From NCBI RefSeq assembly GCF_050920415.1, contig NZ_CP169309.1: a stretch of 64,000 nt of DNA; one strand, written 5' to 3'. Below, piece by piece: positions 50,562 to 50,595 of this stretch. Position 1 is the stretch's first letter. Every line of letters begins with the position of its first letter. Origin of the DNA: Escherichia coli. GTDB lineage: Bacteria > Pseudomonadota > Gammaproteobacteria > Enterobacterales > Enterobacteriaceae. Both the position numbers and the translations under genes were made by a program. Under the pieces are notes generated by a model. It worked only from the letters and a program-made list of their open reading frames with translations, made no database searches and had not been told where the DNA came from.

Positions 50562-50595
50562 GCCGGATGCGGCGTAAACGCCTTATCCGGCCTAC
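50562..50595. repeat. REP element in the flgF-flgG intercistronic region
   Basis: GCCGGATGCGGCGTAAACGCCTTATCCGGCCTAC. Confidence 0.7.

Follow-up and report, generated by a model that had tools for sequence, protein, structure and literature searches.

The window analysed here is a 64,000-nucleotide stretch of contig NZ_CP169309.1 from an Escherichia coli assembly (GCF_050920415.1), and its minus strand carries flgB (53808-54224), flgC (53400-53804), flgD (52693-53388), flgE (51462-52667), flgF (50687-51442) and flgG (49734-50516). Of the last two, which were identified from the open reading frame list and the RefSeq annotation, flgF is the upstream cistron and encodes the proximal rod protein, whilst flgG lies downstream and encodes the distal rod protein; the names FlgF and FlgG come from a RefSeq record identical to the window across 50400-50800. 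Over that interval the sequence matches strain MFDS1022581 at 100% identity and most other strains at about 93.5%. Gene order at the flg locus is the same in K-12, and flgE is one codon shorter in the window strain than in K-12. Between the flgF and flgG reading frames, both on the minus strand, lies a gap of 170 bp (50517-50686), which is the subject of this analysis. A first-pass annotation of the window had placed a canonical REP palindrome within this gap, inside the flgB operon and between flgF and flgG. The open reading frames confirm the extent of the gap, and together with the RefSeq annotation and the K-12 gene order they support the position within the operon.

The palindrome itself, at 50562-50595, is a Y-type REP (palindromic unit) on the minus strand, as had been claimed. 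Its plus strand reads GCCGGATGCGGCGTAAACGCCTTATCCGGCCTAC and the mRNA-sense minus strand 5'-GTAGGCCGGATAAGGCGTTTACGCCGCATCCGGC-3'. All 34 nucleotides match the Y-REP consensus, with no mismatches, where no chance matches are expected (100 shuffles of the window), and the sequence is identical to the K-12 copy. The unit has the form expected of a Y-type REP, an imperfect palindrome of about 35 nt with the consensus and the GTAG/CTAC foot, the CTAC tetranucleotide occupying 50592-50595. As minus-strand RNA it is predicted to fold into a hairpin of -19.5 to -20.9 kcal/mol (z = -3.6 against shuffles) with an internal mismatch bubble. It is extragenic and belongs to a high-copy family, REP-containing queries finding 28 places in the median E. 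coli genome. About seven REP units are present in the window as a whole; the others lie at 4838-4851, 17776-17789, 19418-19499, 20007-20020 and 39285-39318, where 19418-19499 is an inverted Z2/Y pair that looks like BIME-2 and the unit at 20007 is degenerate.

Although the REP was correctly recognised, its first description was incomplete, missing a second, decayed REP, the linker with an IHF site that joins the two, and the BIME-1 element that they form and that fills most of the gap. By its sequence, the palindrome forms one arm, the Y REP, of a mosaic repeat of the BIME-1 type. Read in the sense of the mRNA, the flgF stop codon is followed by 26 nt of spacer (50661-50686), a decayed Z1 REP, the L linker, the Y REP, 45 nt of spacer (50517-50561) and the flgG ATG. 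The Z1-type REP (50632-50660, minus strand; TTGCCCAGTGTGCAAACTTATC-GGTCTAC) is inverted with respect to the Y REP and was recognised by its column-for-column alignment to the intact Z1 REPs of K-12, of an Escherichia species representative (L053), of E. albertii and of four other loci. Its hairpin has been lost in the window strain, with a predicted energy of -1.7 kcal/mol compared with -10.7 for the K-12 copy and -13.5 and -13.8 for those of the outgroups, and a 37-nt stretch around it folds no better than shuffled sequence (z = 0.02). Alignment likewise defines the L linker, the 36 nt on the minus strand that separate the CTAC head of one REP from the GTAG head of the other (50596-50631). 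The linker is a dispersed repeat in its own right: the 45-nt linker region of the L053 allele, used as a query, finds 19 places in the median E. coli genome. Within the linker, the plus strand at 50608-50620 contains a putative IHF site, AATCAATAAATTG, an exact match to the consensus WATCAANNNNTTR. There are 6 exact matches to this consensus in the window against 2.0 expected, and in the alignment the one in the linker falls where other BIME-1 copies have their homologous L-motif sequence.

The complete Z1-L-Y core can be aligned column for column with intergenic elements at mtlA-mtlD, fliC-fliA, livF-ugpB and sseB-pepB; further matches to the linker fell mostly at the fliC and livF loci again. 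BIME-1 has been described as a single-copy combination of a z1 and a y REP with a conserved long linker L, in which an IHF site is often found (Ton-Hoang et al., 2012; PMC3333891). The gap holds one Z1-L-Y unit, with no tandem repetition, in which the long L linker is conserved and carries the exact IHF match, and the Y REP is intact and faces an inverted Z1; in the window strain the Z1 is recognisable by alignment but has lost its palindrome, whilst the orthologues in K-12, L053 and E. albertii possess a fully formed Z1. Outside the core, an inverted repeat brackets the element, with TGACAAA (50539-50545) pairing with TTTGTCA (50667-50673) on the plus strand to give the outer stem in the fold predicted for the gap. 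The 12 nt adjoining Z1 on the minus strand (TGACAAATGTAA) recur unchanged in the flank of the livF-ugpB copy of BIME-1 (L087). This identity hints that the repeated unit may reach beyond Z1-L-Y, into sequence that we take to be perhaps the external BIME motifs of the older literature. Many E. coli genomes also have a BIME-1 copy immediately after fliC (L086, L088, L089), which makes this a second flagellar locus with the same element.

The history of the gap can be followed in related genomes. Besides the window, flgF was located in 80 other species and the distance to flgG could be measured in 79 of these. It is 5-31 bp in 75 of the 79, including Citrobacter, Salmonella, Enterobacter, Leclercia and Kosakonia, and in Citrobacter and Salmonella the junction reads TAA-TACAGGACATTTT-ATG, a gap of 13 bp. 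Only four of the 79 have long gaps: E. coli E69 (137 bp), Escherichia L053 (152 bp), E. albertii (153 bp) and one Enterobacter (140 bp); with the window and K-12 included, the range for Escherichia is 137-171 bp. The 13 nt immediately before flgG in the window (CACAGGACATTTT; 50517-50529, minus strand), which contain the flgG ribosome-binding site CAGGA (50523-50527, minus strand), unpaired in the predicted fold of the gap, are conserved in Citrobacter, Salmonella and all Escherichia forms and represent the ancestral flgG leader. Given the short gaps of the relatives, the remaining ~157 bp (50530-50686, minus strand) are an Escherichia-specific insertion between the flgF stop codon and this leader. 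Its distribution places the insertion before the split of E. coli and E. albertii, in the Escherichia ancestor. In L053 and E. albertii the Z1 REP and the linker are intact, and the Y arm has lost from its interior the 18 nt lying between a pair of GCCG direct repeats; the remnant, GTAGGCCG followed directly by (C/T)ATCCGGC, lies at about 2340-2375 of both the E. albertii sequence (L009) and L053. As judged from these alignments the decay is reciprocal, having affected the Y arm in L053 and E. albertii and Z1 in the window strain. The flgF gene of E. albertii NBRC 107761 (L009 1501-2256) has an in-frame stop at codon 167 (…LKLVKA*GSEV…) and appears to be a pseudogene.

In K-12 MG1655 the orthologous element (1134558-1134728) has the same flanking genes, the same site and the same architecture, with a gap of 171 bp against 170 bp in the window and an identical Y REP. 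Both REP arms are intact in K-12, whereas the window strain has lost the Z1 palindrome; compared with the outgroups, the Z1 of the window carries six changes, including a 1-bp deletion. The feature table of NC_000913.3 contains no repeat_region features over the 49 kb around the locus and is uninformative as to whether this REP has been catalogued. The two gaps differ at 22 of 171 aligned positions (12.9%), a divergence close to that at third codon positions of the neighbouring genes (14.3% for flgF and 10.0% for flgG). The differences are concentrated in the Z1 arm and the linker, with 17 in about 70 nt. The Y REP and its immediate flanks have none in 38 nt, against 22 in the 133 nt of the rest of the gap, a contrast with p ~0.004 by a rough hypergeometric estimate. 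Selection on the hairpin could account for the perfect Y arm, and so, equally, could gene conversion from the many other Y REPs of the genome. The K-12-type allele of the gap is found at an identity of at least 99% in 3161 records, and the window type in about 16. Along the operon, divergence from K-12 at third codon positions is 5.8% for flgB, 5.2% for flgC and 7.8% for flgD, before rising to the values given above for flgF and flgG. Together with the rarity of the allele, which reaches at least 99% identity in about 16 of 5426 genomes, this suggests that the flgF-flgG segment is divergent or recombinant.

The site is not reserved for BIME-1. Amongst 5426 complete E. coli genomes, the BIME form is present in 3476 (64%), and 1944 (36%), including O157:H7 and E69, have another dispersed repeat in the same place. 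The O157-type gap, represented by positions 414-550 of the O157:H7 sequence L002, has the core CCCTCGCCCCTTTGGGGAGAGGGTTAGGGTGAGGGG, which occurs at a median of 6 places per genome (megablast) and folds with -20.8 kcal/mol. This repeat appears to resemble BoxC. That family is among the known E. coli repeats listed in PMC2267715. The BIME and O157 forms have common flanks, including the short inverted repeat TGACA...TGTCA, and the O157-type allele is without the L linker. In Enterobacter sp. ENT03, a 140-bp insert (L060 2257-2396) occupies exactly the same flgF|flgG junction; it belongs to another, unrelated family of dispersed repeats, whose median copy number in E. coli genomes is 13. Its copy number and length match ERIC, and its core appears to match ERIC as well. 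Three repeat families have thus colonised the one junction independently, and the site looks permissive.

The turnover of repeats has nevertheless left some features in place. A strong hairpin is kept in every Escherichia form examined, be it the Y REP (-19.5 kcal/mol), Z1 (-13.5 kcal/mol) or the O157 repeat (-20.8 kcal/mol), and the outer TGACA/TGTCA stem and the flgG leader persist in both the BIME and the O157 forms. One explanation would be selection for a structured spacer, in which a long, folded and untranslated gap, whatever its repeat family, uncouples the translation of flgG from that of flgF and so permits an excess of FlgG. The rod takes 5 FlgF and 24 FlgG subunits (PMC11673145), a roughly five-fold greater requirement for FlgG, and the 5-31 bp junctions of the relatives would be compatible with translational coupling, whereas all Escherichia have 137-171 bp. 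The relatives, however, reach the same stoichiometry without a spacer; the ERIC-like insert of one Enterobacter, unrelated to the other repeats, also suggests a site that is simply permissive. We consider selection for uncoupling improbable. The more general proposition, that the repeat families at flgF|flgG turn over whilst the outer stem and one or more hairpins of -13 kcal/mol or below are always kept as a structured spacer, we likewise give little credence. Were it true, mRNA processing or independent translation would be set by the spacer at the boundary between the low-copy proximal rod and the high-copy distal rod and rings, a regulatory layer absent from Salmonella.

The same comparisons bear on a role at the level of DNA, in which the L linker would bind IHF and, together with the REPs, act as a nucleoid or topology element, introducing a bend or a supercoiling barrier into a strongly transcribed operon. 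The exact match to the IHF consensus in the linker is in keeping with such a role, as are the frequent IHF sites of BIME-1 linkers and the binding of IHF, Pol I and gyrase by REPs (PMC3333891). The K-12 allele, however, is mismatched in the core of the consensus (AATCGA against AATCAA; the K-12 site is AATCGATAAATTG), the absence of the linker from the O157-type allele removes the site altogether, and both REP-REP chromosome contacts and nucleoid compaction by REP325 have been found to be unsupported (preprint 10.64898/2026.03.23.713779). We therefore regard a DNA-level role as very improbable.

Signals for the start or end of transcription were sought in and around the gap. A terminator scan of 50300-50900 found no intrinsic terminator, the Y hairpin being followed by AUGAAGAC and not by a U tract; scans for sigma-70 and sigma-28 promoters found no site in the gap; and the gap, with a C/G ratio of about 1, offers no C-rich, G-poor stretch at which Rho could load. 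These results bear on the idea that the gap encodes a small protein or a transcript of its own, such as an sRNA or one from an internal flgG promoter. Mechanically predicted reading frames of 42-56 aa do span the gap on both strands, and Rfam returns one match, to naRNA4 (RF02564). The reading frames are not conserved, since the 1-bp indel relative to K-12 falls inside them, and as coding sequences they were rejected. The Rfam match, the only one obtained, is to the REP hairpin itself, and its 40.3 bits fall short of the gathering score of 59.5, so membership of naRNA4 was rejected as well. With neither a promoter-like site for sigma-70 or sigma-28 nor a terminator, a gene or promoter within the gap is barely credible.

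A further possibility, which sharpens the proposal of the first-pass annotation that the REP would favour flgB-F over the downstream genes, is that the hairpin acts as an intra-operon stabiliser of the malE-malF type, tuning protein ratios by two-fold or more. In this scheme an endonucleolytic cleavage downstream would be followed by 3'-to-5' exonucleolytic decay that is blocked at the hairpin, such that the flgB-F segment outlives flgG-J. The general premise, that REP hairpins can stabilise upstream mRNA, is established, although the effect depends on context (preprint 10.64898/2026.03.23.713779). Several features of the locus agree with the scheme. The hairpin is strong (-20.9 kcal/mol, z = -3.6) and lies 3' of flgF within the transcript; its geometry fits a barrier to 3'-to-5' exonucleases, being 45 nt upstream of the flgG start with the flgG ribosome-binding site predicted to be unpaired; the Y arm is perfectly conserved with respect to K-12 despite the 12.9% divergence of the gap; and all Escherichia variants have at least one strong hairpin. 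Elsewhere in the genome, tandem gene pairs containing a REP are on average biased towards the upstream gene, with a median log ratio of 0.96 against -0.09, although the variance is large, and in the yjdMN operon REP325 is both a partial Rho-dependent terminator and a stabiliser of the upstream gene, yjdM (preprint 10.64898/2026.03.23.713779).

Against this, flgBCDEFGHIJ was among the operons analysed for differential decay in a K-12 strain by Dar and Sorek (2018; PMC5927463, table S2), and no flg gene pair appears in their thresholded table of differentially decaying pairs (S3), which covers one growth condition in that K-12 strain. Salmonella, Citrobacter and Enterobacter build the same flagellum with gaps of 11-13 bp, and the hairpin that is present varies by lineage, with 36% of E. 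coli having another repeat. With 24 FlgG to 5 FlgF in the rod (PMC11673145), an upstream bias would run contrary to demand. The effects of REPs on mRNA half-life are moreover non-uniform, and in the REP325 study constructs with two to four hairpins show no Rho dependence (preprint 10.64898/2026.03.23.713779). We consider a stabiliser of this strength unlikely. Our literature search on the E. coli flgF-flgG gap, or on a REP with flgG, returned nothing.

A separate effect of REPs, on translation, was also considered. REPs reportedly cause stalling when they lie no more than 15 nt from the upstream stop codon, a finding attributed to Liang, Rudd and Deutscher in 2015. Here 26 nt separate the flgF stop codon from the decayed Z1 and 91 nt separate it from the intact Y REP, both beyond that distance.

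On balance, the element is probably a tolerated and slowly decaying passenger repeat with at most a modest polar effect. The data show the identity and the history of the element: in an ancestor of E. coli and E. albertii about 157 bp entered the junction, after the flgF stop codon and ahead of the flgG ribosome-binding site, and the window strain retains the Y hairpin and the linker after loss of the Z1 hairpin. In the meantime the element has probably behaved as a passenger. The division of E. coli between BIME and other repeats (3476 against 1944 genomes), the reciprocal decay of the arms and a divergence of the gap near the level of third codon positions all favour a passenger. The element is transcribed within the flgBCDEFGHIJ message, where the Y hairpin may act as, at most, a weak and context-dependent barrier to 3'-to-5' exonucleases and a partial attenuator of transcription. 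We infer that any resulting bias towards the flgB-F segment would be less than about two-fold. That the effect is weak is suggested by the lack of a terminator, promoter or Rho-loading stretch in the regions scanned, of any flg pair in the decay table and of Rho dependence in constructs with two to four hairpins. Conservation of the Y arm, retention of a hairpin in all forms examined and the genome-wide upstream bias at REP pairs count against a passenger. We do not think that the element is a required or tuned regulator of flagellar stoichiometry.

REP and BIME sequences are the best-known intergenic repeats of E. coli, and since the same element occupies the same site in K-12, its presence in the window matters little in itself. 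Of wider use may be the natural allelic series at this one junction, which runs from 13 bp in Salmonella through BIME-1 in 64% of E. coli and another repeat in 36% to an ERIC-like insert in one Enterobacter. They could offer a means of gauging how an intra-operon repeat alters the ratios of mRNA and protein for a complex whose stoichiometry is known.

Amongst known systems, the REP between malE and malF and REP325 in yjdMN are likewise situated between co-transcribed cistrons, 3' of the upstream gene. REP325 differs in scale: it comprises 12 palindromic units (six repeats of two; PMC4550694), whereas the flgF-flgG gap has one intact hairpin. The REP325-derived RNA naRNA4 (RF02564) shares the REP hairpin, about 39 nt of the gap matching its 77-nt model. 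A close likeness is to BIME-1 (also known as RIP or RIB elements), with which the gap has in common a Y REP, an inverted Z1-type REP and an L linker of about 36 nt with an IHF consensus. Like other BIME-1 elements it is present as a single copy outside coding sequence, and the copy in the window differs by its lost Z1 palindrome. The element is thus an ordinary and already known one, a Y-type REP in a BIME-1 with a degenerate Z1, orthologous to the K-12 element.
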